A DNA stretch of 64,000 bases from an uncultured Rhodospirillaceae bacterium (GTDB lineage Bacteria > Pseudomonadota > Alphaproteobacteria > UBA9219): NCBI GenBank assembly GCA_964390005.1, contig CAYMGM010000003.1, positions 14,271 to 78,270 on the forward strand, read 5' to 3'. This document shows positions 2,227-58,747 of the stretch, piece by piece; positions within the stretch are counted from its first letter, which is position 1; each line of letters begins with the position of its first letter. Both the position numbers and the translations under genes were made by a program. The notes under the pieces are model-generated. The model saw only the letters and a program-made list of their open reading frames with translations, had not been told where the DNA came from and searched no databases.

Positions 2227-2385
2227 AAGCTCATCAGGGAAAAGGCGGTTAACACGAGCCCTTGCTATATCGCCTTTAGATGAAACTAATGAGCCTGAAT
2301 TAACGTTAAAGACCTTAAAAAATGTTTCTTACGTTTAACAAGCCCCTCGCGGCATGCCAAAAAAGGCAAAAGCCCACGCATACAT

Positions 2386-3246: not shown

Positions 3247-3289
3247 GACGGCAGATTAGGGACTAGATTTTTAGGTGGCAAGGCTTTCT

Positions 3290-3720
3290 TCAATTGTTGG
3301 TTAAGGACGCGATCCAGTCGCGGACCTCTTGCGGCGATGACGGCGCGGCGGATGAGCGGCCTATACGCAGGCCGATGCCGCCTAGTGCTTCACTGGCCGC
3401 GATGGCCGCTAGATCCGTGATATCGTCGCCAAGAAAAACGGGGCGGCGACCTTGAAAAGGCGCCTCCGCCATAAAAGCACGAAGCGCTGTACCTCCCAGC
3501 TTGCTGTAAACGTGCGTCAGATTGCGCACCAAGGAAGACGGGACAAAACGTTTTGCGCGCGTGGTGTGATATCGAGAAGAGCCCCGTCGATATCAAGGAA
3601 AAGAGCGTCGTGCGTTGGATCCAAAGGGGGTGAGATTTGTTGCACGGCGTTAGTCCGTTGGGCCTGCGATAAAGTTTTCAATGTGCTTGGCGGCTCCAGC
3701 TTTACGACAAGCCAGGTCAA
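3290..3720 (-). pseudogene. otsB: Trehalose-6-phosphate phosphatase (OtsB) remnant: internally deleted and frameshifted
   Basis: Two ORF fragments in different frames. N-terminal fragment has 'ALFLDIDGALLDI' (HAD motif I). C-terminal fragment 'KLGGTALRAFMAEAPFQGRRPVFLGDDITD...GGIGLRIG' closely parallels E. coli OtsB '[29 protein letters not shown]...GGMSVKIG'. About 150 aa of the cap domain are missing. Confidence 0.55.
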
Positions 3721-3900
3721 GCCGGGACAAGAAGCGGCAAAGCTGGGCCAGGGCGTTACGATGAAGGACGGCGATGGCCTGAGCGTGACGTTGCACTATG
3801 ATGCCGAGTTGAAAGATCGCTATGTCGGCCATGCCGGGATCCTTCAGGCGCGGTACGATTTTTGATCGGATATCGCCTGATACGATCTTTTCTTTATAAG

Positions 3901-3941
3901 AACGGGCGTTTGCACTTTCCCTGCAAACGCCCGTTTTGTTG
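3901..3941 (+). terminator. Perfect 14-bp inverted repeat hairpin followed by T-rich tract (terminator-like or regulatory)
   Basis: aacgggcgtttgca-ctttccc-tgcaaacgcccgtt then ttgttgg; lies in the divergent region between the otsB remnant and adh. Confidence 0.35.
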
Positions 3942-4161
3942 GTAAGGGATCATGCGCGCGCCGATCCTTTGGTGTATGGCCTTGTGTTGTTTTGTTTTTC
4001 GATCTCTTCGAACGGCATCATATCTTGATGATGTACAAATCGACCCAGGACGGCTAGACTGGTCCTTCGGACTTAACCTTGTCCCTTTCTTCTACGTTCC
4101 TTTCTGCATGCCAAAGATCGCCAAAAGAGCGATCCCATCATTCTAACAAGGAGGATCTGTC

Positions 4162-5205
4162 ATGAAAGCTCTCGTCTATGAAGGCCCCGGCAAAAAAGCC
4201 CTGAAAGAATGCCCCAAGCCGCAAATCAAAGATCCGGGCGACGCGATTGTGCGCCTGACCAAAACGACGATATGCGGGACCGATCTTCATATTTTGAAAG
4301 GCGACGTCGCGACATGCGCGCCGGGCCGCATTTTAGGGCATGAAGGCGTCGGCGTTATCGACAGCGTTGGGGCTGCCGTAACAAACTTCCGCCCGGGCGA
4401 CCGTGTGTTGATCTCTTGTATTACGGCCTGTGGTCATTGCGATTTTTGCCGCAAAGGCATGTTCTCGCATTGTAAAACGGGCGGTTGGATTTTAGGCAAC
4501 GAGATCGACGGCACGCAAGCCGAGTTCGTTCGCACCCCGCATGCCGATACAAGCCTTTACCCTATTCCTGCTGGGGCGGATGAAGAAGCGCTTGTGATGC
4601 TCAGCGACATTTTGCCAACGGGTTTCGAGTGCGGCGTTTTGAACGGCAAGGTCGAGCCCGGATGCAGCGTTGCCATTGTCGGCGCAGGCCCCATCGGCAT
4701 CGCCGCTTTGCTGACGGCGCAATTCTATAGCCCGGCCAAGATCATTATGATTGACCTTGACGACAACCGTCTGGATACGGCCCTGCGTTTTGGGGCGACC
4801 GATAGCGTGAACAGTGGCGACGGCAAAGCCATTGAGAAAGTGATGGCGCTGACGGAAGGGGCTGGGGTGGACGTAGCGATTGAAGCCGTTGGTATCCCGG
4901 CGACTTTCGAGCTTTGCCAAGGCCTGATTGCGCCGGGCGGACGCATTGCCAATATTGGCGTCCACGGGACCAAGGTTGACCTGTACATGGATAAGCTTTG
5001 GGATCGTAACATCACGATCACGACGCGCCTTGTCGATACCGAGACGACGCCGATGTTGCTAAAGACGGTTCAATCGAAAAAGATCGACCCGACGCGGCTT
5101 GTGACGCACCGTTTTAAGCTCAGCGATATTCTGAGCGCGTATGAAACGTTTGGTAAAGCGGCGCAAACGAAAGCGCTGAAGGTGATCATCGAAAATGACC
5201 TTTAA
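4162..5205 (+). CDS. Zn-dependent (MDR family) NAD(P)-alcohol dehydrogenase
   Basis: 347 aa; 'GHEGVGVI', 'CGHCDFCRKG' structural Zn Cys cluster, 'VAIVGAGPIG' Rossmann; RBS aaggagg 7 nt upstream. Confidence 0.85.
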   Translation: MKALVYEGPGKKALKECPKPQIKDPGDAIVRLTKTTICGTDLHILKGDVATCAPGRILGHEGVGVIDSVGAAVTNFRPGDRVLISCITACGHCDFCRKGMFSHCKTGGWILGNEIDGTQAEFVRTPHADTSLYPIPAGADEEALVMLSDILPTGFECGVLNGKVEPGCSVAIVGAGPIGIAALLTAQFYSPAKIIMIDLDDNRLDTALRFGATDSVNSGDGKAIEKVMALTEGAGVDVAIEAVGIPATFELCQGLIAPGGRIANIGVHGTKVDLYMDKLWDRNITITTRLVDTETTPMLLKTVQSKKIDPTRLVTHRFKLSDILSAYETFGKAAQTKALKVIIENDL

Positions 5206-5235
5206 AGACGTCGTTTGAGGTAAACAAAAGAGCGA

Positions 5236-5270
5236 AGGGCTCCGGCGTGGCGCCGGGGCCTTTCTTTTGT
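5236..5270 (+). terminator. Rho-independent terminator after adh
   Basis: ggctccggcg-tgg-cgccggggcc stem followed by tttcttttgt. Confidence 0.55.
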
Positions 5271-5340
5271 CTCATCGGCTTCATAGAGGCATGCGGTTCG
5301 ATTCTTCCCTATTGTGAATGGGCGCTGCACCAAGCCTAAT

Positions 5341-5626
5341 CTTCACCGTCAGCGACGAAACAAATGTTCCGCTTTGCCGAAAAACAGGCCTTTCAGAAGC
5401 AAAAAGCGGCGCTCAAAAAGCGCCGCGAGCTTTTTCAAAGCCAAGACAAGATCGACGCAAGACGCGAAGAGCTTCTGAATCAACGGGAACGGCGACTGCA
5501 GGGTCGTTGGTCTGAGATCAAAAACCTGTTTTGCATCCGGTGGATGTCAACCTATGACCAAAAAGCAAAAGCTGGAATTGACGTTAATTAGGAAGGATCA
5601 GAGGTCTTGGTTGGGGCCTCGGATTT
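5341..5626 (+). repeat. Degenerate copy (~80-85% identity by eye) of SNF2-helicase 3' end (~16383-16405 plus ~16693-16860) fused directly to the mod 5' start (~18200-18285); non-functional relic
   Basis: Translated fragment FAEKQAFQKQKAALKKRRELFQSQDKIDARREELLNQRERRLQ matches helicase C-terminus LAEKLAFQKQKAALEKRRSQKRHELFQSQDKIDARREELINQLERQLQ. This is followed by atgaccaaaaagcaaaagctggaattgacgt, identical to the mod start MTKKQKLELT. Confidence 0.7.
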
Positions 5627-5641
5627 TGCTGGCCTGATCGC
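5627..5641 (+). other. Candidate distal att core: imperfect copy of the tRNA-Ala 3' end region
   Basis: ttgctgg-cctgatcg vs ttggtggacctgatcg at 58670-58686 (tRNA 3' end, reverse strand). Confidence 0.3.
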
Positions 5642-5696
5642 ACTTGATGTGAAGAAATAACTCGTTGAATTAAAATGGAAATCGTTAAGGCAAAAA

Positions 5697-5721
5697 ACCT
5701 ATTACCCCACGATGTTACCCC
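5697..5721 (+). repeat. 25-bp direct repeat shared with 58532-58556 (candidate arm-type integrase site / island terminal repeat)
   Basis: acctattaccccacgatgttacccc vs acctattaccccacgatcttacccc (24/25). Confidence 0.5.
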
Positions 5722-5871
5722 CAATCCCCAAAACGGCCAAAACCACACCAGCTAGCCTTCGAACCAAGGACCATCATTCAACTTAAAAGGGAGATTAGCA
5801 CGAAACATCTACGCTCACAAACGACCAATCTTTGTTGCTCGTAGAAGTCCTTACAAACAACCAAGCCCCTC

Positions 5872-6690
5872 TTAAAGGCTTCTCTGTCCCGGTTTGGGTG
5901 TCGGCAATCCAGCGTGTCTTTGTTTGTTGTCGGGACGGAAGGCTGAAAACCCGTTGGGATCAAGCTCTGGCGCTACCTTTTCACCAAAAACGAAAAGAAG
6001 GTCTCGGTTTAGGCATGCTATTTGTTTTGGGCTCAGCGACCATTTTTCAAACAGCTGCGTCCTGAACGAGATCAAGCGTTCGTAATTGTTGGGATGAAGT
6101 TTGCCTTCGCCGACTTCGATGCATCGATTGAGCCAGTAACTATGCGTGTACGCAAGCATCAGCGAACGATAGCCAAACTTGCTTGATTGAACTGCAGGCG
6201 CGTTCATAAAATTGATAACAGCACGCGTTTCTCCAACGGTCAGCGATCCGGATTTGAGAAGAGCGCGGTACATCCAGGAAATCATATCGCGCTCGAGACC
6301 AACAAATCCTTGGGCTGGGAGCTTCTCTGCTCTGAGCATGACATATTCGACGGCGCTTAGATATTCGCTGTCCCTGTTTTTTTCGCCGTTGTCTGGCGTG
6401 AGTTCTGTTTCTGGTTTTCCGTTCGGAGAAGACGGTTTCTTGGGATTCTTTTTGAGACCAAGTTTGGTATAATCTTGAAATCCTTGTTTTGGAACAATAC
6501 CCCATTTCTTACCGCAGGAAGGTCCCGCTGGAACTTCGCCATAAACCGGATGTCGTAGGATCAAGGCGATGCCTGTCGGAAGATCGCGGGGGCAGAAAGC
6601 GCATTCAGCGACCGTAACGAAATCACGCCGTAAAAGAGGAAAGGCATGTTCGTTCAGGTTCGAGGTATCGATTAAAGGTTTATGAGCCAT
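5872..6690 (-). CDS. Hypothetical protein (AT-rich cargo)
   Basis: 272 aa ORF in a visibly AT-rich segment at the island's left end; no motif recognised. Confidence 0.45.
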   Translation of the reverse strand: MAHKPLIDTSNLNEHAFPLLRRDFVTVAECAFCPRDLPTGIALILRHPVYGEVPAGPSCGKKWGIVPKQGFQDYTKLGLKKNPKKPSSPNGKPETELTPDNGEKNRDSEYLSAVEYVMLRAEKLPAQGFVGLERDMISWMYRALLKSGSLTVGETRAVINFMNAPAVQSSKFGYRSLMLAYTHSYWLNRCIEVGEGKLHPNNYERLISFRTQLFEKWSLSPKQIACLNRDLLFVFGEKVAPELDPNGFSAFRPDNKQRHAGLPTPKPGQRSL

Positions 6691-6840
6691 TTTCGTGATG
6701 TCTTTATAAAATCCCGGATCCGGCTCATCCTAAATATCCCGAACGCTCTTTTTCAAGAGGATATCCTATTGGTTTCATAGAAAAAACTGCTTAATATCGG
6801 CGTTTGAATCGTATAACGCTTTATTCCAGCAAGGAAAATC

Positions 6841-7893
6841 ATGCCGCGTGTTGACCTTTGTGTCCCTTTTTCTGAAAAGGATGAAGCGAAAAAACTTGGC
6901 GCACGGTGGGATGCTGCGCACAAAGTTTGGTTTGTTCCCGAGGGGCTTGCGGCGGCACCTTTTGTACGCTGGCTGCCTGTGCCGGATGATGAGCCATCGG
7001 AGGTCCACATCACGCAACCGACCTCTTTCGATCATCCTGTTGTGCGGTACGATCCCGAACTGCCGGACGATCTTTTCAGCCCTCGACGCATCGCATCAAC
7101 GCAGGAAATTGCTGATTGCTTCTGGCAGGACGGTCGCCTTTTTCTGCTTCCGGTTCCCAAGGAAGATCAGGACCGTATTTTGGCCGCCGGAGCGCAACAA
7201 GGAGGCGGGGGCCTCTTTATAGGACGCGGGACTAATATTGATTTTGCCGCGTTAAACCCGTTTCTTCCTTTCGTCGGCAAATCCATCATCATGCCGCGCC
7301 TTGGAGATCTGATCCCCGCATCATCCTTTGGGGCCAATCTCTGCAATCTTCTGACGCGCCCCTCCTGGGACAAACTGCGGCAACGGACATTCGCCGAAAC
7401 AGATGGACGGTGTGAAATTTGCGGCTCGACCGAGCATCTGGAATGTCATGAATACTGGAAATATTTCGAGCCTCTGCCGCTCTATCTGGAAAAAGGAGCC
7501 TGTGGCGTTCAAAAGCTTGCTCGGCTTATGCCTCTTTGCGCTGCCTGTCATGAAACCTATCATCTGGGACTTGCCAACGTGCGAGGCCGATTTGAAATCG
7601 TCCGGGCACGCCTTCGCGCGATGAATCGCTGGACGGAAGAAGAGTATGCCGATTATGGAGACTTTCTTGATGAGCGCAGCGCGCGGCGCACCGAATGCTT
7701 CTGGGTTTTAGATTTTTCAGAACTGAAGGAAAGCACGCTTTCAGTCCACGACAAGTGGCGTTTGCGCCAGGATGGCTTTCTTGTCTGTAACACGCAGACA
7801 GGAACAACGGAAACCATGATCCTTGGCATTCCTTGGGAACACAGGGGCCAATCGCATGCGTTAATGGATCCCGTCATTGCGTACTACGAATGA
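6841..7893 (+). CDS. DUF5710-like N-terminal domain plus HNH-type nuclease motif protein
   Basis: 350 aa; N-terminal 'VPFSEKDEAKKLGARWDAAHKVWFVP' resembles the DUF5710 module seen at the C-terminus of TraC-type primases. Central 'CEICGSTEHLECHEYW...CAACHETYH' is HNH-like. Confidence 0.6.
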   Translation: MPRVDLCVPFSEKDEAKKLGARWDAAHKVWFVPEGLAAAPFVRWLPVPDDEPSEVHITQPTSFDHPVVRYDPELPDDLFSPRRIASTQEIADCFWQDGRLFLLPVPKEDQDRILAAGAQQGGGGLFIGRGTNIDFAALNPFLPFVGKSIIMPRLGDLIPASSFGANLCNLLTRPSWDKLRQRTFAETDGRCEICGSTEHLECHEYWKYFEPLPLYLEKGACGVQKLARLMPLCAACHETYHLGLANVRGRFEIVRARLRAMNRWTEEEYADYGDFLDERSARRTECFWVLDFSELKESTLSVHDKWRLRQDGFLVCNTQTGTTETMILGIPWEHRGQSHALMDPVIAYYE

Positions 7894-8161
7894 ACTGCTC
7901 AGTAAAAATGCACTCAATCTTTTGTCATGTGACCATTTCTGACCCATTGTGGCCCTATAAAGACAACAACATTTCCTAATTTGGTGTTTCGGAGGGGCGG
8001 ATGGATCGGGAACGGAATGCTCCCTTGCAGCCGATGGCGGACGACAGGGCGTACAAACCGGAGTTCGTTATCGTCTTCAGCGCATTGGCTATCTGCGGGG
8101 CTCTGGTTGGATTCTTGGTTGGTTATCTTTATCGATAACACAAAGGAGGCTTGGGGGCGTT

Positions 8162-11584: not shown

Positions 11585-11624
11585 AGGGCAAAGGATTTTA
11601 GACGTTTGTTATCAGGAAAGACTC

Positions 11625-12503: not shown

Positions 12504-12550
12504 TATAATTTTTCCTGCTTGATATCGATTTGAAGCATGATGTCTTTTGG

Positions 12551-13540: not shown

Positions 13541-13826
13541 CGACAATCCCCAACAAAAACACTGGGGAAGAGCCTGCCACAAGTGATCCGGTTGGCCAAG
13601 AGCGCATGTGACCGGAATTGTCATGTCCGGGTGCTAGAATAGAAAGCGTTAACAGAGTGGTGTGCCATGAAGCCATTAAAACTTGTCCCGTCAAAAGGTC
13701 TTGAAATGCTTTTGAGTGCATTCGGCATTCTGGGGACTATGGAGGCGAGAAAGACCAAAAAAGCCAAATACACGAACTATATCCTTGTCTATGGCCCCGA
13801 TAATAAGGTCCAAACTGTTGAAACCA

Positions 13827-13860: not shown

Positions 13861-13954
13861 ATTATTTGTCTTAATGGGCTGTCCTTGGCTGTTCTTTTGT
13901 TTTAATATTTCGCCACAAAATCGGGCAGGCTAAGCGAATCAGAGATCGGAAGAA

Positions 13955-16891
13955 ATGAGGGCGCAAAACGAACAAATCGAGACAGGCGGAGGCGGAAACA
14001 AAACACCCATATCCCCTTATCATGCCAAATATTTTGCGCACGAGATTTCGACCAAGAAATCCGCCGCTGCCGTTGATCGCCTGACAACCTCGCTTTTCGA
14101 TGCCGCCGTTGATTTAAACCCCCATCAGATTGAGGCCGCCCTTTTTGCCCTTCGCTCCCCCTTATCCAAGGGCGTTATGCTGGCCGATGAAGTCGGTCTC
14201 GGCAAAACCATTGAGGCGGGTATCCTGCTTTGCCAAATGTGGGCCGAGCATAAGCGGCGCTTGCTTGTCATTTGCCCAGCCGTTTTGCGCCGCCAATGGT
14301 CGATAGAGCTTGAGGAAAAGTTCAACCTGCCGACGCTTGTGCTGGAAGGCAGTAATTATGCCGAGCGCAGCCAAGCAGGCGATCCCTTCGATTTCAAAGG
14401 CGTCGTCATTATTTCCTACCAGTTCGCGAACCGCTGCGCCGACGAGCTTAAGGCCGGGTTATGGCATTTGGTCGTGATCGACGAAGCCCACAAACTGCGA
14501 AATCTGTTCAAAAAAGACAACAAGATGGGCCGCACGATCCAAGCGGCCTTGGCCGATCACAAAAAGGTCCTTCTTACGGCCACACCTTTACAAAATTCGC
14601 TCATGGAGCTTTACGGCCTCGCCTCGCTGATAGACGAGCGCATCTTTGGCGGGATTGATACGTTCCGCACGGCCTATGTCAACGGGACGCCCAATATAGA
14701 TGATCTCAAAGACCGCCTTGCGCCCTTTGTCCAACGCACCCTTCGGCGACAGGTTTTGGAATATATCCGCTATACACGCCGCGAAGCGGTTACCCAGCCT
14801 TTCAGGCTTTTGGGTGACGAACAAAAACTCTATGACGAAGTCTCTGACTTCCTGTTGCAGCAAGATACCTACGCCATCCCATGGGCGCAAAGAAAGCTGG
14901 TCGTTCTTATTGTTCGCAAGCTTCTGGCGTCTTCCTCTTATGCCCTGATTGGAACGTTAGAGACGATCAAGGCGCGGCTGGAACGTATGCGGGAAACGCG
15001 GCGCGAGGAAAAGTTGAACCTGCGCACCGCCTTTGTCGCCGGGCAAGACATTGATATCGAATATGCCGAAGCAGGAGAGGAGGAAGGGCCCCAGCCCACG
15101 CCCCAGCGCAAGGAAATCGACCTCGAAAAGTTGGCCTATGAAATCGAACAAATCGAAGGTTTCATCGCCCTTGCGCGCTCGATCCGGATTGAAACAAAAG
15201 CCAAAGCGCTTCTCACAGCCCTGCAAACCGGCTTTGCCCGTATGGGGGAACTTGGCGGCGCGCGCAAAGCCCTTGTCTTCACGGAATCCAGTCGCACGCA
15301 GCGTTGCCTGAAGGACTATCTGGAAGACAACGGCTATCGCGGCAAGATCGTGACATTCAACGGCCAGAACACAGACGATCTTGCGAAGGATATTTACGCC
15401 CATTGGCTCAAAAAGAACGCCGAAACAGGCCGCGCCACGGGATCGAAAAACGTCGATATGCGCATGGCCTTGGTCGATTTCTTCCGCGACCGTGCCGAAG
15501 TGATGATCGCGACCGAGGCCGCCGCCGAAGGCATCAACCTTCAGTTCTGTTCGCTTATCGTCAATTACGACCTGCCTTGGAACCCGCAACGCATCGAACA
15601 GCGCATTGGCCGCTGCCATCGTTACGGGCAAAAGCACGATGTCGTCGTCATCAACTTCCTGAACCAAGACAATCTTGCCGATCAACGCATCTATGAATTG
15701 CTGAAAGAGAAGTTCCAGCTTTTCGACGGCGTCTTTGGCGCATCAGACGAGGTTCTAGGCCGCGTCGAATCCGGCATCGATTTCGAAAAGCGTGTGCTAG
15801 AGATTTTCGAGACCTGCCGCAAACCGGAAGAAATTGAACAAGCCTTCGTCGATCTTCAGGCCGAGATGGAAGAGCCAATCCAAAGCCGCATCGCCGAAAC
15901 GCGCACTCTGTTGTTCGAGCATTTCGACGAAGATGTCACCAAACACCTGAAGTTCAGCATGGAGGCGACAAAACAGCGCCTCGATACCGTCACGCACCAT
16001 TTCTGGGAGCTGACAAAGTTCGTCTATGCAGACCAGTTTTTCTTCAACGACGAAAAGCTGATCTTCGGCGACGATGCCGCCTTCATCGCGCGCGGCGAAA
16101 GGCCGGAAGGGGGCGAACATACGCCCATCTTCCACTATCTGGAAACGCGGCAGGGCGAGGTCAAAACAGGTCTGTCCGGCCAGCCCTATCGCATGGCGGG
16201 CCCGATGGGCGAGGCCGCCCTTCAAAAAGGGCGCGCGATGGAGACGCCACCCGCCGCGCTGGCCTTTGATTTTGCCTCATACCCCCACAAAATCGCCCTT
16301 TTGGAAGAACAAAGCGGCAAGCGCGGCTGGCTTTGGTGCGACAAGCTGACAATCAAAACGTTCGAGGAAACGGAAAGCCTGATCTTCACCGTCTGCGACG
16401 AAAATGGTGCGATCCTGCCGCCCGCGTTCGGCGAAAAGCTTTTCCTTCTATCGGCCACCAACGAAGGGGCCTTGGCCCCATGCCCCCACCAAAACGCGGT
16501 CGAAGCCGCGCGCGCGTCCAGCATCGAAGCCAGTCTGAAAGAATCGGAAATCAGCAACCACAGCTATTTCGAGGAAGAGCTGGATAAGCTCGACCGCTGG
16601 GCCGAGGATCTGAAAACGGGCCTAGAGATGGAGCTGAAACAGCTCGACCGCGACATCCGCGAGGCTGCCCGTCAATCGAAACAGAGGGTCAGCCTTGCCG
16701 AAAAGCTGGCTTTTCAGAAGCAAAAAGCGGCCCTCGAAAAACGCCGCTCCCAAAAACGCCACGAGCTTTTCCAAAGCCAAGACAAGATTGACGCAAGGCG
16801 CGAAGAGCTTATTAATCAATTAGAACGGCAACTGCAGGATAGCAGGCATGAGGTGGTGCCGCTGTTTTGCGTGGGATGGAGGGTTTCGTGA
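13955..16891 (+). CDS. SNF2/RAD54-family helicase (DISARM DrmD-like)
   Basis: 978 aa; motif I 'ADEVGLGKTIEAG', 'VVIDEAHKLRN', 'LLTATPLQNSLMELY', C-lobe 'IATEAAAEGINLQ...NYDLPWNPQRIEQRIGRCHRYGQ'. Confidence 0.85.
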   Translation: MRAQNEQIETGGGGNKTPISPYHAKYFAHEISTKKSAAAVDRLTTSLFDAAVDLNPHQIEAALFALRSPLSKGVMLADEVGLGKTIEAGILLCQMWAEHKRRLLVICPAVLRRQWSIELEEKFNLPTLVLEGSNYAERSQAGDPFDFKGVVIISYQFANRCADELKAGLWHLVVIDEAHKLRNLFKKDNKMGRTIQAALADHKKVLLTATPLQNSLMELYGLASLIDERIFGGIDTFRTAYVNGTPNIDDLKDRLAPFVQRTLRRQVLEYIRYTRREAVTQPFRLLGDEQKLYDEVSDFLLQQDTYAIPWAQRKLVVLIVRKLLASSSYALIGTLETIKARLERMRETRREEKLNLRTAFVAGQDIDIEYAEAGEEEGPQPTPQRKEIDLEKLAYEIEQIEGFIALARSIRIETKAKALLTALQTGFARMGELGGARKALVFTESSRTQRCLKDYLEDNGYRGKIVTFNGQNTDDLAKDIYAHWLKKNAETGRATGSKNVDMRMALVDFFRDRAEVMIATEAAAEGINLQFCSLIVNYDLPWNPQRIEQRIGRCHRYGQKHDVVVINFLNQDNLADQRIYELLKEKFQLFDGVFGASDEVLGRVESGIDFEKRVLEIFETCRKPEEIEQAFVDLQAEMEEPIQSRIAETRTLLFEHFDEDVTKHLKFSMEATKQRLDTVTHHFWELTKFVYADQFFFNDEKLIFGDDAAFIARGERPEGGEHTPIFHYLETRQGEVKTGLSGQPYRMAGPMGEAALQKGRAMETPPAALAFDFASYPHKIALLEEQSGKRGWLWCDKLTIKTFEETESLIFTVCDENGAILPPAFGEKLFLLSATNEGALAPCPHQNAVEAARASSIEASLKESEISNHSYFEEELDKLDRWAEDLKTGLEMELKQLDRDIREAARQSKQRVSLAEKLAFQKQKAALEKRRSQKRHELFQSQDKIDARREELINQLERQLQDSRHEVVPLFCVGWRVS

Positions 16892-17718
16892 GGATTGTTT
16901 GGAAAACCATAATTGATTTTTGGTTGGCCTCACTAGACGTAGTGACTATCTGGGTTCAGCCTGTGCTGGTTGGGGTGAGCGTTCTTGCAAGTGCTTTTTT
17001 AACTTATGATTTTTCTCATGTTTACTCGTATGTTCCAAGTTGGAAGCATCAGATTGATCTACTCAGATCGGCCCTTCCCATTACGCTAGTGTTGACCCAA
17101 GTCTTCCTGTTGGCTGTGTCCATTTTTCAGGGAATTAGGCAATGCTCAATTCGCAAGTTGAAAAAACAAGTGGATGAATACAGAGAAAAAATAAATATCA
17201 TTGCAAGCAATGTTGAAACGCTTGTTGATGGTATATTGTTGAGATTGGCGGAAAAGCTAAAATTGGACAAAGGAGATCCATCGCGGCTAACAATTTATAT
17301 CCACAACAGCAATGGACACTTTATTTCCTTCGGACGGTACTCCCCAGACCCATCTCTGAATGAAAAGGGAAGGAGCCTGCTGCCTGACAACGCGGGGTGT
17401 ATATCTCAGGCGTGGAAGAGTGATTGGTGTTATGAGGGGAATTTGAGTTCTAAAGATTGCCGCCAAAAATACAAAGTTGAGCAGTCCGTTGTTGATGGAT
17501 TGAGAATGAAATCAAGGTTCTATGCCGTTAAAAGAATTGACTCATCAAACAAGCGACCTTTGGCTGTCGTTGTTTTTGAATCTGTCACCGCAAACAAGTT
17601 TGACGAACAAAAAATCAGAAACCTTCTGAACGGAGAAGAAGCATATCTAGCAGAGATAATCGATTGTCTGAAAGAGCATATTCCTAACCCGCAAGATGCG
17701 CAGAAATGGGGGTTCTAA
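16876..17718 (+). CDS. AT-rich membrane protein: 2-3 N-terminal TM helices plus cytoplasmic domain (PanT-like toxin candidate)
   Basis: ATG overlaps the last codons of the SNF2 gene; hydrophobic stretches 'VQPVLVGVSVLASAFL' and 'ALPITLVLTQVFLLAVSIF'; markedly lower GC than neighbours. Confidence 0.6.
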   Translation: MEGFVRIVWKTIIDFWLASLDVVTIWVQPVLVGVSVLASAFLTYDFSHVYSYVPSWKHQIDLLRSALPITLVLTQVFLLAVSIFQGIRQCSIRKLKKQVDEYREKINIIASNVETLVDGILLRLAEKLKLDKGDPSRLTIYIHNSNGHFISFGRYSPDPSLNEKGRSLLPDNAGCISQAWKSDWCYEGNLSSKDCRQKYKVEQSVVDGLRMKSRFYAVKRIDSSNKRPLAVVVFESVTANKFDEQKIRNLLNGEEAYLAEIIDCLKEHIPNPQDAQKWGF

Positions 17719-18206
17719 TGACCGCACTTAAAGACATCATTGCTTATGTGTGTAAGACCTATCCTTCGAACTTGCAGGATGAGTTGTCAAATGCACGTGT
17801 CACCAAAATGATTTACCTTGCTGATTGGAGGCAAGCGATCGAACATGGGCGCCAGATTTCAGATATTGACTGGTTCTTCGACAATTACGGGCCTTACGTT
17901 GATGATGTGAGGAAAGAAGTTGCTGAAAACAATTCGATTTTTGACCTTCAGCATGTTCAGAATATGTACGGGCAGCCAAAGAACCTGATTAAGCTTAAGG
18001 ATAAGAACTATGCGCCGTCCCTTTCTGATGATCAAAAGAAGTCAATTGATCATGTTATTGAAATGACTAAAAAAATGTATTGGGACACATTCATCAAGCT
18101 CGTTTATTCAACATATCCCATAACTTCTTCAGAAAGGTATTCGCATCTCAATTTGCTTGAGAAGGCTTCTGAATATAAGGCTCAGAAAGAAGAAAAAGCA
18201 CCATGA
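17706..18206 (+). CDS. Panacea-domain (DUF4065, SocA/PanA-like) protein, putative antitoxin
   Basis: 'TKMIYLADWRQAIEHGRQISDIDWFFDNYGPYVDDV' matches the DUF4065 core (LqKLlYfa.gw......pLf...feAw.yGPV). Alternative start ATG 17718 overlaps upstream TAA (TAATG). Stop overlaps mod ATG (ATGA). Confidence 0.6.
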   Translation: MGVLMTALKDIIAYVCKTYPSNLQDELSNARVTKMIYLADWRQAIEHGRQISDIDWFFDNYGPYVDDVRKEVAENNSIFDLQHVQNMYGQPKNLIKLKDKNYAPSLSDDQKKSIDHVIEMTKKMYWDTFIKLVYSTYPITSSERYSHLNLLEKASEYKAQKEEKAP

Positions 18207-19888
18207 CCAAAAAGCAAAAGCTGGAATTGACGTGGATTGGGAAGGATCAGAGGCCTCGGTTGGAGCCTCGAATTTTGGTGGAGGATGATGCGCGGTCGTA
18301 TCATGCGGACAAACGCGTTACGGATCATGATCTATTCGACAATAAGCTGATCTTTGGCGACAATTTGCTCGCGCTCAAGGCGCTGGAGCAGGAGTATGCG
18401 GGGAAGGTCAAATGCGTCTTTATCGATCCGCCCTATAACACCGGATCGGCCTTCACGCATTACGACGACGGGCTTGAGCATTCCATCTGGCTCGGCCTCA
18501 TGCGCGACCGCTTGGAGATCCTGCGCAACCTCCTCTCCGAAGACGGCTCAATCTGGATCACCATCGACGACAACGAATGCCATTACCTCAAGGTGCTTTG
18601 CGATGAGGTGTTTGGAAGGGGAAACTTTTTGTGCGATATCGCTTGGGAGAAGCGATATTCTCCTCCACCGGACACAAAGGACTTTGGCTATGTACACGAT
18701 CATATTTTGGTCTACAGAAAGACACCAGCTTTTCGACGCAACTTATTGCCCTTAACGGAAGACCAATCTGGTCGATATAAAAATCCAGATAACGATCCCC
18801 GCGGCCCTTGGAAAGCTATGGATTACACTTGTCGATATTCTGCCGACGAACGCCCTAATCTCAATTATCCGATTATACAGCCCCACACGAAGAAAGAGAT
18901 ATGGCCAAACAAAACGCGAGTCTGGGCAATGTCGCGGGAAGTTCATGAAAAGAACGAACGAGAGAATAGAATTTGGTGGGGAACAAAAGGCACAAATAAT
19001 GTTCCTGCACTAAAAAACTTTTTCTCGGATATCAATCAGGGCATGATGCCAATGTCATTATGGAAACATACTTTGGCAGGCCATAATCAAGATGCGATGA
19101 AAGAAATGTTATCTCTCTTTGGGCGAGATGTTTTTTCAACACCAAAACCCGAGCGCTTGATACATACGGTTCTTCACATAGCCACCAATCCCAACGACCT
19201 CGTCCTCGACTCCTTCGCGGGTTCTGGCACCACCGGCGCTGTTGCTCATAAGATGGGGCGGCGGTGGATTATGATTGAGTTGGGGGAGCATTGTCATACG
19301 CATATCATTCCGCGCCTCAAGAAAGTGATCGATGGCGAGGATAAGGGCGGGATTACCGAGGCGGTGGCTTGGAAAGGCGGCGGGGGCTTTCGGTATTATG
19401 CGCTGGCGCCGTCTCTCATCACAATGGACAAATACGGTCAAGCGGTCATCAACAAAGACTATGACCCCGCCATGCTGACGCAGGCCATGTGCAAGCTGAT
19501 GGGCTTTGCCTATGCGCCGTCTGAGACCGTTTATTGGCAGCAAGGTCATTCAACCGAGACCGACTTTATCTATGTGACGACGCAAACGCTGGATCAGGCG
19601 CAGCTCGCCGCTCTTTCGGAAGAAGTGGGGGACAAGCAAAGCCTCCTCATCTGCTGCTCGGCCTTTCGCGGCAAGGCAGACGGTTTCGAAAACCTAACCC
19701 TCAAAAAAATCCCTCGCGCGGTGTTGGCCAAATGCGAATGGGGCCACGACGACTACAGCCTCAACGTCCAAAACCTGCCTCTCGCCGAGGAGGACCAAGT
19801 GGACATCCCCACGCCGCGCAAACAAAAAGCCAAAGCGCGTGCCAAGGCAAAAGCGGCGGAACCTTCTTTGTTTGGAGATGTGGAATGA
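18203..19888 (+). CDS. mod: Type III restriction-modification Mod subunit (beta-class N6-adenine DNA methyltransferase)
   Basis: 561 aa; 'FIDPPYN' motif IV precedes 'DSFAGSGTTGAVA' motif I (beta permutation); central variable TRD. Confidence 0.85.
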   Translation: MTKKQKLELTWIGKDQRPRLEPRILVEDDARSYHADKRVTDHDLFDNKLIFGDNLLALKALEQEYAGKVKCVFIDPPYNTGSAFTHYDDGLEHSIWLGLMRDRLEILRNLLSEDGSIWITIDDNECHYLKVLCDEVFGRGNFLCDIAWEKRYSPPPDTKDFGYVHDHILVYRKTPAFRRNLLPLTEDQSGRYKNPDNDPRGPWKAMDYTCRYSADERPNLNYPIIQPHTKKEIWPNKTRVWAMSREVHEKNERENRIWWGTKGTNNVPALKNFFSDINQGMMPMSLWKHTLAGHNQDAMKEMLSLFGRDVFSTPKPERLIHTVLHIATNPNDLVLDSFAGSGTTGAVAHKMGRRWIMIELGEHCHTHIIPRLKKVIDGEDKGGITEAVAWKGGGGFRYYALAPSLITMDKYGQAVINKDYDPAMLTQAMCKLMGFAYAPSETVYWQQGHSTETDFIYVTTQTLDQAQLAALSEEVGDKQSLLICCSAFRGKADGFENLTLKKIPRAVLAKCEWGHDDYSLNVQNLPLAEEDQVDIPTPRKQKAKARAKAKAAEPSLFGDVE

Positions 19889-20415
19889 GCAATCTTATTG
19901 ATGGGCTAGCTTTGGTCGTTGCGCTGGGATCAGCTGTGGTTTCTTGTTTATCTGCGGGAGCTGCAAAGGCCTCCGCAGACGCTGCAAAAATCTCTGCGGA
20001 GGAAACGAAGAAACAACGAAAGATTAGCCAATATGTGACATTGTCCCCCCATTTTTTTGCTGTAAGCCAGATTCTTTCAGCCCTAAGCGATGGAAAGGAA
20101 ACACCGAAGCGTCTTCTTGCGGCAAGAGACTCTCTTGTCTTTTTAAAGAAAGCTTTACCAAAGGACGAAGAGCTAATTGCCGTTGTCAATGAGATCGAAT
20201 ACAGATTTGAAGAGACGATCTCCGATGGCATTACAACCTTTAGAAGTCATTTAGTAAATTACCCAGCAAGGGAGACTGAGGATAACTTTGCTCAATTCAA
20301 TCTCGATCATAACGTCGATAAGGATCCAACTAAAAAAAGATTTAAAATTGCGCAACTAAAGGAAATGCTGTCGATGATTGAAGGAAGATATATTTCTTTG
20401 GATGACACCCCATGA
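19885..20415 (+). CDS. Small membrane-anchored protein of unknown function inserted between mod and res
   Basis: ATGA overlaps with both the mod stop and the res start; N-terminal TM helix 'LIDGLALVVALGSAVVSCLSAGAA'; AT-rich. Confidence 0.55.
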   Translation: MSNLIDGLALVVALGSAVVSCLSAGAAKASADAAKISAEETKKQRKISQYVTLSPHFFAVSQILSALSDGKETPKRLLAARDSLVFLKKALPKDEELIAVVNEIEYRFEETISDGITTFRSHLVNYPARETEDNFAQFNLDHNVDKDPTKKRFKIAQLKEMLSMIEGRYISLDDTP

Positions 20416-23066
20416 ACCGTTTCCTCAACGCCATCTCAAACCGCCTCTCTCTCCGCACGCCGCAGCGGGAGTCTCTTGAAATCCTTGCGCGCGTGGCGGA
20501 CGTCGTGCCGCTCAACAAAACGCGCGATGTGGCTGAGGCGCTGCGGGTCATTCACGAGGATTATCCGAGCGTTGAGGATTTTGAGCGCGATTTTCCTTCG
20601 CTCTGTTTTGCGCTTGCCACGGGCGTTGGCAAAACGCGGTTGATGGGGGCGTTTATCGCTTACTTGCATCTTGCGAAGGGCATGAAGCATTTCTTCGTGC
20701 TGGCCCCAAACCTCACCATCTATAACAAGCTCATTGCCGATTTCACGCCAAACACGCCGAAATATGTGTTTCAGGGGATTGCGGAGCTGGCGATCACGCC
20801 GCCGGAAATCATCACGGGCGACAATTACGAAAGCGGGCGCGGCATTCGCGGCACCGACCTTTTGGGCCAAGCCGACAACATTCACGTCAACATCTTCAAC
20901 ATCTCGAAAATCAATACCGAGACGCGGGGCGGGGCCTCGCCGCGCATCAAGCGGCTTTCGGAATACTTAGGCGAAAGCTATTTCGAATATCTGTCCAAGC
21001 TCGACGATCTTGTTTTGCTGATGGATGAATCGCACCGTTACCGCGCCTCGGCGGGCATTCGGGCGCTGAATGAACTGAACCCCGTTCTTGGGCTTGAACT
21101 GACCGCGACGCCGCAGATTGAAAACGGTGCAAAGGCCGTGCCGTTCAAGAACGTGATCTATAGCTATCCGCTCTACAAGGCGATGGAAGACGGCTATGTG
21201 AAGGAACCGGCGGTTGCCACGCGTGAAAACTTCGATCCATCTAAGTTCACGGAAGACGAGCTGGAGAAAATCAAGCTCGAAGACGCTATTTGCATTCATG
21301 AAAACGTCAAGGCCGAGCTGAAGGTCTATGCCGATAACAACAATCGGCCTTTGGTCAAGCCCTTTATCCTCGTCGTCGCGCAGGACACGACGCATGCCGA
21401 AAATCTGATGGCTTTGATTAAATCGGATGCCTTTTTCGAGGGGCGCTATCGGGATCGCGTGATTACGGTGCATTCGAACCAGCGCGGCGAGGAAAAGGAC
21501 GAGACGATCCAGAAACTTCTCTCGGTCGAAGACCCTGCCGAGCCGACCGAGATTGTTATTCACGTCAATATGCTGAAAGAAGGATGGGACGTCACCAACC
21601 TTTACACGATTGTGCCTTTGCGTGCGGCGAACTCGCGCACGCTTGTTGAACAATCGATTGGGCGCGGGCTTCGTTTGCCTTATGGAAGGCGCACAGGTGT
21701 TGCCGCCGTAGATCGTTTGACCATTGTGGCACACGACCGGTTTGATGAGATTATCCGCGAGGCGAACGATCAACACTCGATCATCCGCGCAGGCGTTGTG
21801 ATTGGCAAAGACATTGCCGCCAAGCCGAAGCAAGCCGTTGAGATTAAATCGAACATTGAATTGATCGTGACCGGCGAAGCGCCGGTGAAACCGGAACAAA
21901 AGCCTTTGTTCACAGAAGAAGAGCGTCCGATTGCCAAGGCCTCGTTTGAGGCGATACGGGATTTTGAGCGTCTGCCAAGCTCGCGCGATCTTCTGAAGCC
22001 GGAAACGCAACAGAAAATCGTCGAGCGCGTGATTGAGAAAATCACGCCCGCGCAGGGAACGCTTGGCGGGATCATTGAAAAGCCCAATGTTGAGAACATC
22101 GTCCGGCGTCAGATTGAAGCCTATGTCCAGAACACCATCGACATTCCGCGTGTGACCGTGACGCCGATTGGCGCGGATAGCTATGCGTTCACGGACTTCG
22201 ATCTTGATACAAAAAACCTGCCGCGCCTTCAGCCTGTCGAGGATAAAATCCTGATCCAGAATTTGCGCACTTATGAGCGCGAGCAAATGGCCAAGGGCGA
22301 GGCCATCGGCCAAGAAGCGCGACTGGAGGACTATATCGTCGCCGTTCTGATCGATAAGGATGACATTTCCTATGATGACCACGCCGACCTGCTCTACAAA
22401 CTGGCGGGGCAAATGGTGGCGTTTATTTTTTCCTATTTGGGAGATACCGAGAAGACGAAAAACGTCATTCAGTTTTATCGCACAAAGCTGGCCGATTTGA
22501 TCCATGCGCAGATGGATGCGCATGTGAAGCTTGGCTACACGGACTTTCAGGCTTCCGTTACGCGCGGGTTTGAGCAGCCGAAAATGGGTGCGGTAACGAT
22601 TGATGCGGGCGAGAAAGTCAGAAACTTCCGGCAGACGTTGGCCAATGTTTCCGACATTCGCGGCATGGTGTTCGAAGGTTTTTCAAAATGCCTCTATCCG
22701 CAGCAGAAGTTTGATTCCGACACGGAACGCCAGATGGCTATCTTGCTCGAAGACGAAAAGAGCGTTCTGAAATGGTTCAAGCCTCTGCGCAATGACGTTA
22801 AAATCTACACGAATGAAAATGACGGTTATGAGCCTGATTTTGTCGTGGAAACTTCTGGCGAGAAGCTTCTTATCGAGACCAAACGTGCGGACGAAGTCGA
22901 AAGCGATGCGGTCCAGCAGAAAGCTCGCGCCGCACTCAAATGGTGCGAGGCGGCCACAAAACATGAAACGGAGAATGGAGGCAAACCGTGGCGGTATCTT
23001 CTGGTGCCCCACGATGCCGCTAAGCCGAATGCGACGCTTGGTGGATTATTGGTTCAGTACCGCTAG
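20412..23066 (+). CDS. res: Type III restriction enzyme Res subunit (SF2 helicase plus C-terminal PD-(D/E)xK nuclease)
   Basis: 884 aa; Walker A 'LATGVGKTRLMG', 'LLMDESHRY' DEAH-like, C-terminal 'EPDFVVE...LLIETKRADE'. Confidence 0.85.
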   Translation: MNRFLNAISNRLSLRTPQRESLEILARVADVVPLNKTRDVAEALRVIHEDYPSVEDFERDFPSLCFALATGVGKTRLMGAFIAYLHLAKGMKHFFVLAPNLTIYNKLIADFTPNTPKYVFQGIAELAITPPEIITGDNYESGRGIRGTDLLGQADNIHVNIFNISKINTETRGGASPRIKRLSEYLGESYFEYLSKLDDLVLLMDESHRYRASAGIRALNELNPVLGLELTATPQIENGAKAVPFKNVIYSYPLYKAMEDGYVKEPAVATRENFDPSKFTEDELEKIKLEDAICIHENVKAELKVYADNNNRPLVKPFILVVAQDTTHAENLMALIKSDAFFEGRYRDRVITVHSNQRGEEKDETIQKLLSVEDPAEPTEIVIHVNMLKEGWDVTNLYTIVPLRAANSRTLVEQSIGRGLRLPYGRRTGVAAVDRLTIVAHDRFDEIIREANDQHSIIRAGVVIGKDIAAKPKQAVEIKSNIELIVTGEAPVKPEQKPLFTEEERPIAKASFEAIRDFERLPSSRDLLKPETQQKIVERVIEKITPAQGTLGGIIEKPNVENIVRRQIEAYVQNTIDIPRVTVTPIGADSYAFTDFDLDTKNLPRLQPVEDKILIQNLRTYEREQMAKGEAIGQEARLEDYIVAVLIDKDDISYDDHADLLYKLAGQMVAFIFSYLGDTEKTKNVIQFYRTKLADLIHAQMDAHVKLGYTDFQASVTRGFEQPKMGAVTIDAGEKVRNFRQTLANVSDIRGMVFEGFSKCLYPQQKFDSDTERQMAILLEDEKSVLKWFKPLRNDVKIYTNENDGYEPDFVVETSGEKLLIETKRADEVESDAVQQKARAALKWCEAATKHETENGGKPWRYLLVPHDAAKPNATLGGLLVQYR

Positions 23067-57316: not shown

Positions 57317-58507
57317 TTATTTTTTCCCTCTGAGCTTGTCCAGATAGTCCGCCCATTTCTGCATCATCTTCCTGCGTTCAGCCAAATGTGCCGTTCGGTT
57401 ATAGGCGCGCCCGTTCGGGTCGCGAACGGCATGGGCGAGCTGATGCTCGATATAGTCCGGGCGAACATGTAGAACTTCGTCAAGAATTGTGCGAGCCATG
57501 GCGCGGAAACCGTGACCCGACATTTCGTTTTTTTCGAACCCCATGCGCCGCAGCGCACCGAGAACGGCATTTTCGCTCATGGGGCGTTGGCTTGATATGG
57601 CGCTGGGGAAGACGTATTTGCCCTTGCTCGTTAGAGGCTGCAGCTCCGTTAAAATATCCACGGCTTGGCGCGAGAGGGGGACAAGATGCGGCTCGCGCAT
57701 TTTCATGCGTTCAGCCGGAATGTTCCATTCGGCAGCCTTCAGGTCTATTTCCTGCCATTCCGCGTTACGAAGCTCCCCCGGACGGACAAAAACAAGCGGC
57801 GCCAGACGCAAGGCGCAACGCGTCACCAGATTTCCGTTGTAGGCGTCTATGGCCCTTAAAAGCCCGCCGATGGCCTTGGGATCTGTGATGGCGGCAAAAT
57901 GGCCTTCTTTGATTGGGGAAAGGGCTCCGCGCAAATCGATGCTGCAGTCCCGTTCGGCACGCCCGGTCGCCACCGCATAACGCAACACCTGACCACAGTT
58001 CTGTAAAGCCCGATGGGCTGTATCAATGGCTCCGCGTTTCTCAATGCGACGGATGACATCCAAAAGCTCATAAGGCTTAATGTCGCCGACGGGACGGCTT
58101 CCTATCCAAGGAAAGATATCGGCCTCAAGACGGCGAATGATTTTCTCGGCGTGGGCTTCGGCCCAAATCGAGGAGCGCCGTTCAAACCATTCTCTGGCAA
58201 CGACCTCGAATGTGTTTTTCTGGCCATCGGCCTTTGTTAGCTTGACCTGTTTACGGTTAAGGGAAGGGTCAATATCGAAAGCGATGTTTTTTCGTTCCTG
58301 ATCGCGGCGGACTCTGGCTTCTTTAAGGGTGATCTCGGGGTAGACGCCCAAGGAGAGCAGCTTCTCTTTGCCGCCGAAGCGGAACTTCAGCCGCCACCAC
58401 TTGTTTCCCGTGGGTGTTACCAAGAGAAACAGACCATCGGAATCATAGATTTTATAAGGCTTTTTGCGGGGTTTTGCGCTGCGAACGGCAGTGTCGGTAA
58501 GGGACAT
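57317..58507 (-). CDS. int: Tyrosine recombinase / integrase (P4-like)
   Basis: 396 aa; N-terminal 'LTDTAVRSAKP...YKIYDSDGLFLLVTPTGNKWWRLKFRFGGKEK' P4-int signature; adjacent to the tRNA 3' end. Confidence 0.9.
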   Translation of the reverse strand: MSLTDTAVRSAKPRKKPYKIYDSDGLFLLVTPTGNKWWRLKFRFGGKEKLLSLGVYPEITLKEARVRRDQERKNIAFDIDPSLNRKQVKLTKADGQKNTFEVVAREWFERRSSIWAEAHAEKIIRRLEADIFPWIGSRPVGDIKPYELLDVIRRIEKRGAIDTAHRALQNCGQVLRYAVATGRAERDCSIDLRGALSPIKEGHFAAITDPKAIGGLLRAIDAYNGNLVTRCALRLAPLVFVRPGELRNAEWQEIDLKAAEWNIPAERMKMREPHLVPLSRQAVDILTELQPLTSKGKYVFPSAISSQRPMSENAVLGALRRMGFEKNEMSGHGFRAMARTILDEVLHVRPDYIEHQLAHAVRDPNGRAYNRTAHLAERRKMMQKWADYLDKLRGKK

Positions 58508-58531: not shown

Positions 58532-58556
58532 ACCTATTACCCCACGATCTTACCCC
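58532..58556 (+). repeat. 25-bp repeat, partner of 5697-5721 (candidate arm-type site between int and the tRNA)
   Basis: acctattaccccacgatcttacccc. Confidence 0.5.
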
Positions 58557-58671: not shown

Positions 58672-58747
58672 TGGTGGACCTGATCGGGATCGAACCGACG
58701 ACCTCAACATTGCGAACGTTGCGCTCTCCCAGCTGAGCTACAGGCCC
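58672..58747 (-). tRNA. tRNA-Ala (anticodon CGC)
   Basis: Reverse complement GGGCCTGTAGCTCAGCTGGGAGAGCGCAACGTTCGCAATGTTGAGGTCGTCGGTTCGATCCCGATCAGGTCCACCA; G3:U70, loop TTCGCAA, TPsiC GGTTCGATCC, CCA encoded. Confidence 0.85.

Follow-up and report, generated by a model that had tools for sequence, protein, structure and literature searches.

The ICE and its attachment site

The window (the whole 64,000-nt stretch that was analysed, from contig CAYMGM010000003.1 of an uncultured Rhodospirillaceae bacterium) contains a 53-kb Trb-type ICE, extending from about 5641 to 58671 and integrated in a tRNA-Ala(CGC) gene. The features that define its ends are:

58672..58747, minus strand: tRNA-Ala(CGC), the integration target, on the attR side (ARAGORN; the only tRNA in the window)
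57317..58507, minus strand: P4-type tyrosine integrase of the ICE, adjoining tRNA-Ala (Pfam Arm-DNA-bind_3, Phage_int_M and Phage_integrase)
5624..5640, plus strand: degenerate attL core, the displaced tRNA-Ala 3' end, reading TTTTGcTGG-CCTGATCG; a mod homology described below ends with its first 9 nt
5698..5721, plus strand: candidate integrase arm-type site in the ICE left arm, one copy of a unique 24-nt repeat
58533..58556, plus strand: candidate integrase arm-type site in the ICE right arm, the other copy of that repeat

With the integrase beside the tRNA, a conjugation module lies inside the element; the interior encodes a relaxase (DUF3363), TraG, a ParB-like protein, a Strawberry-notch-type helicase/methylase and homologues of TrbB, TrbE, TrbL, VirB8, TrbG and TrbI. 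At the tRNA-distal end the tRNA 3' end recurs as a direct repeat that is weak when judged by itself: 5624-5640 and the tRNA end at 58669-58686 (TTTTGGTGGACCTGATCG) agree in 16 of 18 positions and differ by one substitution and a 1-nt deletion. The repeat is credible as attL by its position and by the unique 24-mer CCTATTACCCCACGATSTTACCCC, which has exactly two copies in the window (0 expected in shuffles), one lying 57 nt right of the 17-mer at the left end and the other 112 nt left of the core at the tRNA end. One copy would thus fall in each arm of the reconstructed attP, as expected of arm-type sites, for which both copies are candidates. The tRNA-3'-end-like sequence had been noticed in the sequence-only reading as a sign of att context, and it is real, though short and degenerate.

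Just leftward of this core are the remains of an operon, hereafter the relic, on the chromosomal side and outside the present ICE. It is very unlikely that the relic instead sits inside the mobile element, with the ICE really starting at 5332 or further left and the tRNA-like 17-mer matching by chance. The att-like repeat is indeed short and imperfect, and was missed by an ungapped 20-mer search allowing up to 3 mismatches; moreover, all of 680-58671 is absent between spoU and the tRNA in two relatives (L172, L173). Against this, the two copies of the 24-nt repeat are placed as the arms of a single attP should be, no better tRNA-end repeat was found anywhere in the window, and CCTGATCG comes directly after the end of the mod homology.

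A plus-strand tRNA fragment at 5294-5330 was considered and rejected, its T-loop-like GGTTCGATTC not being at a tRNA-compatible distance from the CCA-like end. The leftmost protein of the ICE (272 aa) has essentially no homologues; exact-protein look-ups with this gene and with the flanking ADH gene returned the same strain only. The arm-site pattern was absent from viral contigs. Integrase homologues found by tblastn against plasmids have at most 59% identity. A Ralstonia integrase homologue adjoins a tRNA-like 3' fragment, an observation that is supportive only.

The tRNA-Ala locus in relatives

The source organism has no close relative in the collections, its best FolD match being 75% identical. 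The gene order tRNA-Ala(CGC)-yggT-folD-GT2 is nevertheless kept in the nearest relatives (FolD 73-74%), where tRNA-Ala(CGC) again lies upstream of yggT-folD. On the other side the locus is an insertion hotspot: spoU (orthologue 79% identical) is 134 nt from tRNA-Ala in L172 and L173 versus 58 kb in the window, and L170 and L171 have another left neighbour at the tRNA. Because of this difference in spacing, window 680-5331 may likewise be DNA inserted at an older date; it holds genes for a HAD hydrolase and an alpha/beta hydrolase, unknown genes, and an ADH that has spread horizontally. These genes do not travel together elsewhere, and a search left of the relic for the att remnant of an older island found none, the spoU-HAD intergenic region being 9 nt. 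A genome-contig scan for a syntenic empty site by way of the flanking ADH, a poor synteny anchor on account of its horizontal spread, gave only orthologues of at most 80% identity, from many phyla and with no synteny. Neither a genome with the putative earlier element nor a close relative with an empty site was found, and the history proposed below rests on one genome.

The intact operon and its cassette

The left-hand cargo region of the ICE is an intact SNF2/mod/res operon:

13955..16891, plus strand: DrmD-like SNF2 helicase, intact, the source homologue of relic blocks 1 and 2 (Pfam SNF2-rel_dom, Helicase_C)
16876..18206, plus strand: embedded cassette, absent from the relic, of a ~280-aa protein with two N-terminal hydrophobic segments (hydropathy) and a Panacea-domain antitoxin-like protein
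18203..19888, plus strand: Type III mod methyltransferase, intact, the source homologue of relic block 3 (Pfam N6_N4_Mtase; PADLOC MTase_III, 724 bits)
20412..23066, plus strand: Type III res subunit (Pfam ResIII; PADLOC REase_III, 761 bits)

The operon has the Mod (N6_N4 MTase) and Res (SF2 helicase/endonuclease) pair of a Type III R-M system, its mod and res genes being separated by a small ORF. Against the NCBIfam profile DISARM_DrmD_b (NF038318), the SNF2 protein reaches 691 bits, below the cut-off of 950, with only the helicase core (residues 46-685) aligning, and no DrmA/B/C-like gene is present in 13955-23066. DISARM was therefore ruled out as the identity of the operon, by the sub-cut-off SNF2 score together with the lack of DrmA, DrmB and DrmC. 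The distance between the intact SNF2 and mod genes, earlier put at about 1.3 kb, is 1311 nt (16891 to 18203). The cassette that occupies it has a GC content of 0.41-0.43 versus 0.53-0.59 in the flanks, and is not flanked by repeats; its Panacea protein matches Pfam SocA_Panacea at 49.5 bits.

A three-block relic outside the ICE

When 5200-5760 was compared with the whole window by blastn, three stretches of the intact operon were matched colinearly by 5332-5632, and significant matches to operon-like sequence occurred nowhere else. They are (i) 5332-5360 with SNF2 16375-16403 (93% over 29 nt), (ii) 5356-5502 with 16677-16838 (78% over 162 columns, with one 15-nt gap, E 2e-36) and (iii) 5554-5632 with mod 18203-18281 (90% over 79 nt, E 1e-25). 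A fourth off-diagonal match pairs 5697-5724 with 58532-58559, and all remaining matches are of 12-30 nt with E of at least 0.1. The blocks of the relic are:

5332..5360, plus strand: block 1, SNF2 codons ~807-816, homologous to 16375-16403, reading LIFTVSDE in a frame that differs from that of block 2
5356..5553, plus strand: block 2, the SNF2 C-terminal tail, homologous to 16677-16891, with a 15-nt in-frame deletion
5554..5632, plus strand: block 3, the first ~26 codons of mod, its first 30 nt identical to 18203-18232

Global alignment of 5332-5645 with the three concatenated intact pieces gave 254/312 identities (81%), and unrelated regions of the window were not comparably similar; chance similarity and low-complexity sequence were considered as sources of the match and rejected. 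The sequence-only reading had described a relic of about 290 bp from 5341, which is real and specific but starts at about 5332. It had also given the SNF2 part as the last ~55 codons with an internal deletion; there are in fact two deletions, and the SNF2 content is a 29-nt piece (codons ~807-816) plus the last 71 codons minus 5. Overall, the relic retains about 76 of the 978 codons of SNF2 and 26 of the 561 of mod.

Blocks 1 and 2 are joined at a 278-nt frame-shifting deletion whose ends are both CGAAA (16399-16403 and 16677-16681), and the block 2 peptide, AEKQAFQKQKAAL...FCIRW, is out of frame with LIFTVSDE. The 15-nt deletion within block 2 removes SQKRH, which is otherwise invariant. The tail peptide of the relic is LQGRWSEIKNLFCIRW and its mod peptide is MTKKQKLELTLIRKDQRSWLGPRILLA*. 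The last ~17 codons of block 2 are strongly diverged, far more than the rest of the relic. Such a C-terminal tail was found in none of 21 close SNF2 homologues, and among the fetched homologues the nearest to the relic is the window's own operon.

The 30-nt exact repeat (5554-5583 and 18203-18232) raises the question of a wrong join in the assembly, and independent short-read (Logan) contigs do terminate exactly in it, at ~5583 (L001) and, by coordinate arithmetic, at ~5555 (L082). The chance that the relic is such an artefact is very small: the sequence on both sides of the repeat in the relic is unique and diverged, the alternative join would give a nonsense mod after the Panacea gene plus a closed 12.6-kb circle, and the join in the window gives an intact mod matching the family consensus.

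The relic is a pseudogene

The relic is a decaying pseudogene, a non-functional scar, because it has a frameshift, has lost a stop and bears mostly amino-acid-changing substitutions, unlike functional orthologues. Homology and truncation are evident from blastn and the alignment, and the reading frame is broken by the 278-nt deletion, by the disappearance of the SNF2 stop and by an in-frame stop after mod codon 27. Relaxed constraint is seen as well, on a small sample. Over 78 nt, the relic mod shows 8 differences from the intact gene, with six codons changed in amino acid and one synonymously, and the conserved W11 and G13 are lost; functional mod orthologues have 9-15 nt differences over the same stretch. 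The ratio of synonymous to amino-acid-changing codons in mod codons 1-26 is 1:6 for the relic versus 8:1 and 14:1 for two orthologues (L090 and L086; Fisher p = 0.009 and 0.0006, respectively), and in the SNF2 tail it is 7:16 versus 19:6, 15:8 and 14:11 for orthologues.

We considered whether the segment could be functional, as a ~75-aa coiled-coil peptide (ORF 5364-5591, hand-derived coordinates) or as an RNA interfering with the intact operon. An open frame, MFRFAEKQ...GIDVN*, does survive, and a gene caller predicted it on L001. We give such a function next to no credence: a promoter scan found no promoter-like site in the relic, which lies just behind the strong terminator of ADH (5234-5264), an Rfam scan gave no match above threshold, no homologue of the fused ORF was seen, and the substitution pattern is that of neutral decay.

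The SNF2-mod junction

One further feature of the relic falls at the boundary of blocks 2 and 3:

5544..5556, plus strand: fossil SNF2-stop/mod-start junction, ACC TATG ACC, with the stop expected on the ATG, as TGATG or TAATG minus one base

The relic SNF2 tail reads ...F C I R W M S T and is followed directly by TATGACC. Every SNF2 homologue ends in W, three residues and a stop, so the SNF2 stop is expected exactly on the relic mod ATG. The spacer of 7 nt once proposed between the tail and the mod ATG is thus approximate; 10 bases there are unalignable, and the codon register leaves no spacer. A relative that lacks any cassette, L146, has TGG AAG GTT GTC TGATG GCA at this point (TGGAAGGTTGTCTGATGGCA), with the SNF2 stop overlapping the mod ATG, and in nearly all relatives SNF2 is coupled to the next gene by an ATGA, TAATG or TGATG overlap. 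The TATG of the relic is the L146-type overlap with one base missing, which speaks for a native SNF2-mod junction and against one made by a random 1.3-kb deletion. Since stop and ATG coincide in position, as in L146, the source operon of the relic probably never held a cassette, a precise later loss being less likely.

After the divergent ~17 codons of SNF2, identity to the window's operon resumes at the mod ATG (30/30 matches), and the synonymous codon choices in the relic mod 5' end are the same as in the window's mod. The source would accordingly be a distinct allele, with the last ~17 SNF2 codons largely different and the codon choices of the mod 5' end as in the window. Such a mosaic of divergent SNF2 end and identical mod start is the pattern that cassette exchange by recombination in conserved flanks would produce.

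The main alternative is that the operon of the present ICE was itself partly duplicated, for instance through a transient tandem ICE dimer, and that the relic is this copy with the cassette and most else then deleted. Its appeal lies in the similarity of the relic to the window's own genes, greatest among all fetched homologues, and in the 30 identical nt and shared synonymous codon usage at the mod start. It would have to account for a neutral divergence of about 10-20% between two copies within one cell, for the far greater divergence of the last ~17 SNF2 codons than of the rest of the relic, and for a 1.3-kb deletion that recreated the stop/ATG junction in exact codon register, as in natural empty slots. 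We consider this origin unlikely.

A variable slot between SNF2 and mod

The distance from SNF2 stop to mod start was surveyed at SNF2 homologue loci, 63 of which were evaluable. SNF2 and mod are adjacent in 36 of them, and for this reason adjacency is common and plausibly ancestral for the family. All but two of the adjacent loci (34/36) belong to a more distant clade, in which SNF2 is ~48% identical, mod is ~1000-1140 aa and the two genes usually adjoin; the Klebsiella plasmid pAP855 is an annotated example. The short-mod clade, with a short mod like that of the window (at least 50% identical), is represented by 17 distinct loci, and here the slot is filled in 15, being empty only in L123 (42-nt spacer) and L146 (overlap).

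The contents of the slot in the short-mod clade, all on the strand of the conserved flanking core genes, amount to 15 distinct fillings and are largely unrelated: (i) an OLD-type AAA_15 with a TOPRIM nuclease; (ii) AAA_15/21 ATPases; (iii) RHH and PIN proteins with an ATPase, with GmrSD, or with MNT and HepT; (iv) Abi_2 with AIPR; (v) RhuM with AIPR; (vi) Bro-N, KilA-N or SieB modules; (vii) MBL-fold proteins; (viii) DUF1828; (ix) IS256 with Abi. In the window, the slot holds the two-hydrophobic-segment protein and the Panacea protein. Judged from domain content, the slot cassettes are putative defence or toxin-antitoxin genes.

The earlier suggestion that the ancestral system was SNF2-mod-res and that the cassette came later is supported at the level of the family, given the adjacency at 36 of 63 loci, the low GC of the cassette and the native-type junction in the relic, but for this lineage gain versus loss is not proven. 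We go further at about even confidence: the SNF2-stop/mod-ATG junction may be a dedicated hypervariable docking point at which unrelated cassettes are swapped with coupling kept on both sides, the relic being a fossil of the empty state. Were this so, the gain of the Panacea cassette and the recombination tract, from the last ~17 codons of SNF2 to the mod ATG, could be mapped to the base.

The junction with the tRNA end

At the right-hand end of the relic, the mod homology stops within TTTTGGTGG and the sequence continues as the tRNA sequence CCTGATCG. The intact mod reads CGAATTTTGGTGGAGGATG at the junction, the tRNA end GGGTTTTTGGTGGACCTGATCGGG, and the relic CGGATTTTGCTGGCCTGATCGCAC. The 10-mer TTTTGGTGGA is common to the intact mod (18273-18282) and the tRNA 3' end, and the mod and tRNA homologies overlap over this 10-nt stretch found in both parents. 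We infer from the overlap a deletion through microhomology, of which it would be the signature; integrase action at a pseudo-site appears less likely. The microhomology could be partly coincidental. The bases ahead of TGGTGGA in relatives are AGGG or AAAA, and the TTTT ahead of the tRNA end today comes from the ICE's own attP arm. That source of the TTTT modestly supports the idea that the att site of the deleted element was of the type which the present ICE has.

A proposed history of the relic

The sequence-only reading had offered, as its second option, that islands lie here in a tandem array and that the segment is the scar of an earlier system that decayed. That option gains support from the pseudogene state of the relic, from its position outside the ICE att core and from spoU lying 134 nt from the tRNA in a related lineage as opposed to 58 kb here. 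We therefore favour, as fairly probable, the explanation that the relic is the scar of an earlier cassette-less copy of the ICE-borne SNF2/Type III R-M operon, a copy truncated at the 3' end of tRNA-Ala, with the present ICE now lying between it and the tRNA. The observations behind it are the homology and colinearity of the blocks, the native-type junction, and the slot in relatives, which is empty in some and filled in various ways in others. Counting against it, besides the single-genome basis and the failure to find a left att remnant, are that the relic mod head is closest, among the sequences found, to the ICE's own mod, which also fits an origin from the present element, and that the att core at the relic is short, with two differences from the tRNA.

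The order of events would be as follows. An earlier, closely related, cassette-less operon would have been present on the 3' side of tRNA-Ala(CGC), probably as cargo of an earlier island or ICE, with its SNF2 and mod genes translationally coupled, the stop overlapping the ATG. A deletion via the shared 10-mer would then have joined mod codon ~26 to the tRNA 3' end, removing the remaining mod, res and everything up to the tRNA, and leaving the tRNA intact as an attB. Further deletions, again perhaps microhomology-driven, would have taken everything upstream of SNF2 codon ~807, the 278 nt between the CGAAA repeats and another 15 nt, and point mutations would have built up without selection. Finally, the present 53-kb ICE with its cassette-bearing operon would have entered the tRNA, displacing the old tRNA 3' end, which would be the degenerate attL core that abuts the relic. 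The attB predicted by this model is CGGATTTTGCTGGCCTGATCGGGATCGAACC, with the relic remaining in the chromosome.

On this history, elements with defence operons of one and the same family would have entered the tRNA-Ala site repeatedly, a microhomology deletion could strip an element down while regenerating a usable attB, and a cassette-less allele would have existed in the immediate lineage of the operon that now has a Panacea-type cassette. The 30-nt perfect repeat shared by the relic and the intact mod breaks short-read assemblies, and could in principle mediate a deletion that removes attL, locking the ICE in place.

Comparison with known systems

Tandem accretion and remnants beside tRNA att sites are well known from ICE/CIME systems, such as the ICESt elements of Streptococcus thermophilus. 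The relic resembles them as a remnant without integrase or transfer genes beside an att repeat, with a complete ICE then occupying the regenerated tRNA site in a side-by-side array. It differs in that it is not bounded by att sites on both sides: there is one recognisable flanking att (the shared middle one), and a second tRNA-end repeat was searched for leftward and not found, so the relic does not qualify as a CIME. The remnant here has also shrunk to two pseudogenes of ~300 bp in all, to which a few metabolic genes may belong.

Variable embedded genes in multi-gene defence operons have been described for Hma, BREX, DISARM and Type I R-M, and such genes are present in 62.7% of Hma systems, with ATPase/TOPRIM, PIN and GmrSD modules among them (Payne et al. 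2024, bioRxiv 10.1101/2024.01.29.577857). TgvAB is likewise embedded inside a Type I RM operon (PMC11411939). The slot described here is alike in being a variably occupied point, same in orientation, between core helicase and methylase genes, in its ABC-ATPase/TOPRIM, PIN, GmrSD, Abi and TA contents, and in being empty in some cases. It is unlike them in its host operon, a DrmD-like SNF2 with Type III mod/res, in having a single precise junction (SNF2 stop/mod ATG) with translational coupling kept on both sides, and in the occurrence of a fossil empty state beside a filled copy in one genome. This precise hypervariable SNF2-mod slot is the most useful by-product of the analysis, as it could be mined for new defence genes in the way of the Hma, BREX, DISARM and Type I operons.

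The core of the operon, a predicted system, is like Type III R-M systems of the EcoP15I type in that its Mod and Res match PADLOC MTase_III and REase_III, but an SNF2 helicase gene is added upstream and a small ORF separates mod from res. To DISARM it is linked by its SNF2 protein, whose best family match is DISARM_DrmD_b/PADLOC DrmD. Panacea antitoxin domains and PanA/PanT toxin-antitoxin pairs have been described (PMC8832971); the window's cassette is alike in that its Panacea-domain protein immediately follows a small protein bearing two hydrophobic segments at the N-terminus, and unlike in that no family was matched by this putative toxin. As embedded defence genes and att-site remnants are known kinds, the finding adds a further example of them and not a new kind.

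Variable and possibly conserved parts of the SNF2-mod-res operon

Almost all close relatives carry a same-strand cassette at the junction of the SNF2 helicase and Type III mod genes. The cassette differs from one relative to the next and is usually coupled to SNF2 and mod on both sides by overlapping stop and start codons. The filled slots are as follows.

Filled SNF2/mod slots in the window and in close relatives
Window, 16876-18206
L084, L086, L089, L090, L091, L098, L113, L158
L162, L164, L165, L167, L174, L175, L176

Among the genes in these slots are those for an OLD nuclease, ABC ATPases, RHH-PIN, GmrSD, MNT-HepT and Abi_2 with AIPR, as well as RhuM with AIPR, KilA-N, SieB, Bro-N and IS256 with Abi.

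A small ORF of 136-174 aa lies between mod and res in most of the relatives that share the short mod. It has no Pfam match, and the N-terminus of the window copy is hydrophobic; the ORF may represent a fourth, conserved part of the SNF2-mod-res system.

Examples of the small ORF between mod and res
Window, 19885-20412
L086, 17018-17521
L174, 6609-7043
L175, 12627-13037

In an 80%-identical relative (L084 14389-15811, L085 10462-11884), mod is predicted as a pair of ORFs, of 219 and 264 aa, and aligns to the window mod only from residue ~279 onward; it may be disrupted or rearranged.

Two companions accompany the operon: a 1140-aa RNase_H_2/Cas4-like protein fused to an SF1 helicase, whose matches to MkoA are weak, and a WYL/WCX regulator. 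Because this linkage is seen both in the window (8162-13624) and in a 74%-identical relative (L086 2509-8146), it suggests a larger conserved defence module. Compared with L086, the window region has an additional DUF4238 gene.

The relic and its chromosomal flank

The relic and the intact mod share a perfect 30-nt direct repeat (5554-5583 and 18203-18232), which is also visible in independent short-read (Logan) contigs: L001 terminates within the repeat, at 5583, and L082 at ~5555 by coordinate arithmetic. Recombination across the two copies would remove attL together with 12.6 kb of cargo, immobilising the ICE. Elsewhere in the relic, the sequence left by its 15-nt deletion reads as a near-perfect GC-rich hairpin (5406-5426, GCGGCGCTCAAAAAGCGCCGC). 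The hairpin has T-runs on each strand and is scored as a bidirectional terminator, which is probably incidental.

In one related lineage (L172 and L173 6778-7469) 134 nt lie between spoU and tRNA-Ala. In the window, five genes (680-5331) separate spoU from the relic, encoding a HAD hydrolase, a 272-aa unknown protein, an alpha/beta hydrolase, a 137-aa unknown protein and an ADH. The ADH has homologues at 75-80% identity in Alpha-, Beta- and Gammaproteobacteria as well as in Verrucomicrobia, a distribution that suggests horizontal spread.

Composition and candidate arm-type sites of the ICE

The ICE is a mosaic in composition: the conjugation and maintenance backbone (24000-54000) has a GC content of 0.58-0.65, versus 0.49-0.54 for the left-hand defence cargo (5642-24000), near the chromosomal 0.52-0.55.

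Each arm of the reconstructed attP carries one copy (5698-5721 and 58533-58556) of a unique 24-nt repeat, CCTATTACCCCACGATSTTACCCC, with two TTACCCC units within it. These copies are candidates for the arm-type sites of the Arm-DNA-bind_3 integrase. An integrase from Ralstonia with 59% identity likewise adjoins a tRNA-like 3' fragment and repeats rich in ACCCC (L178 1265-1302).
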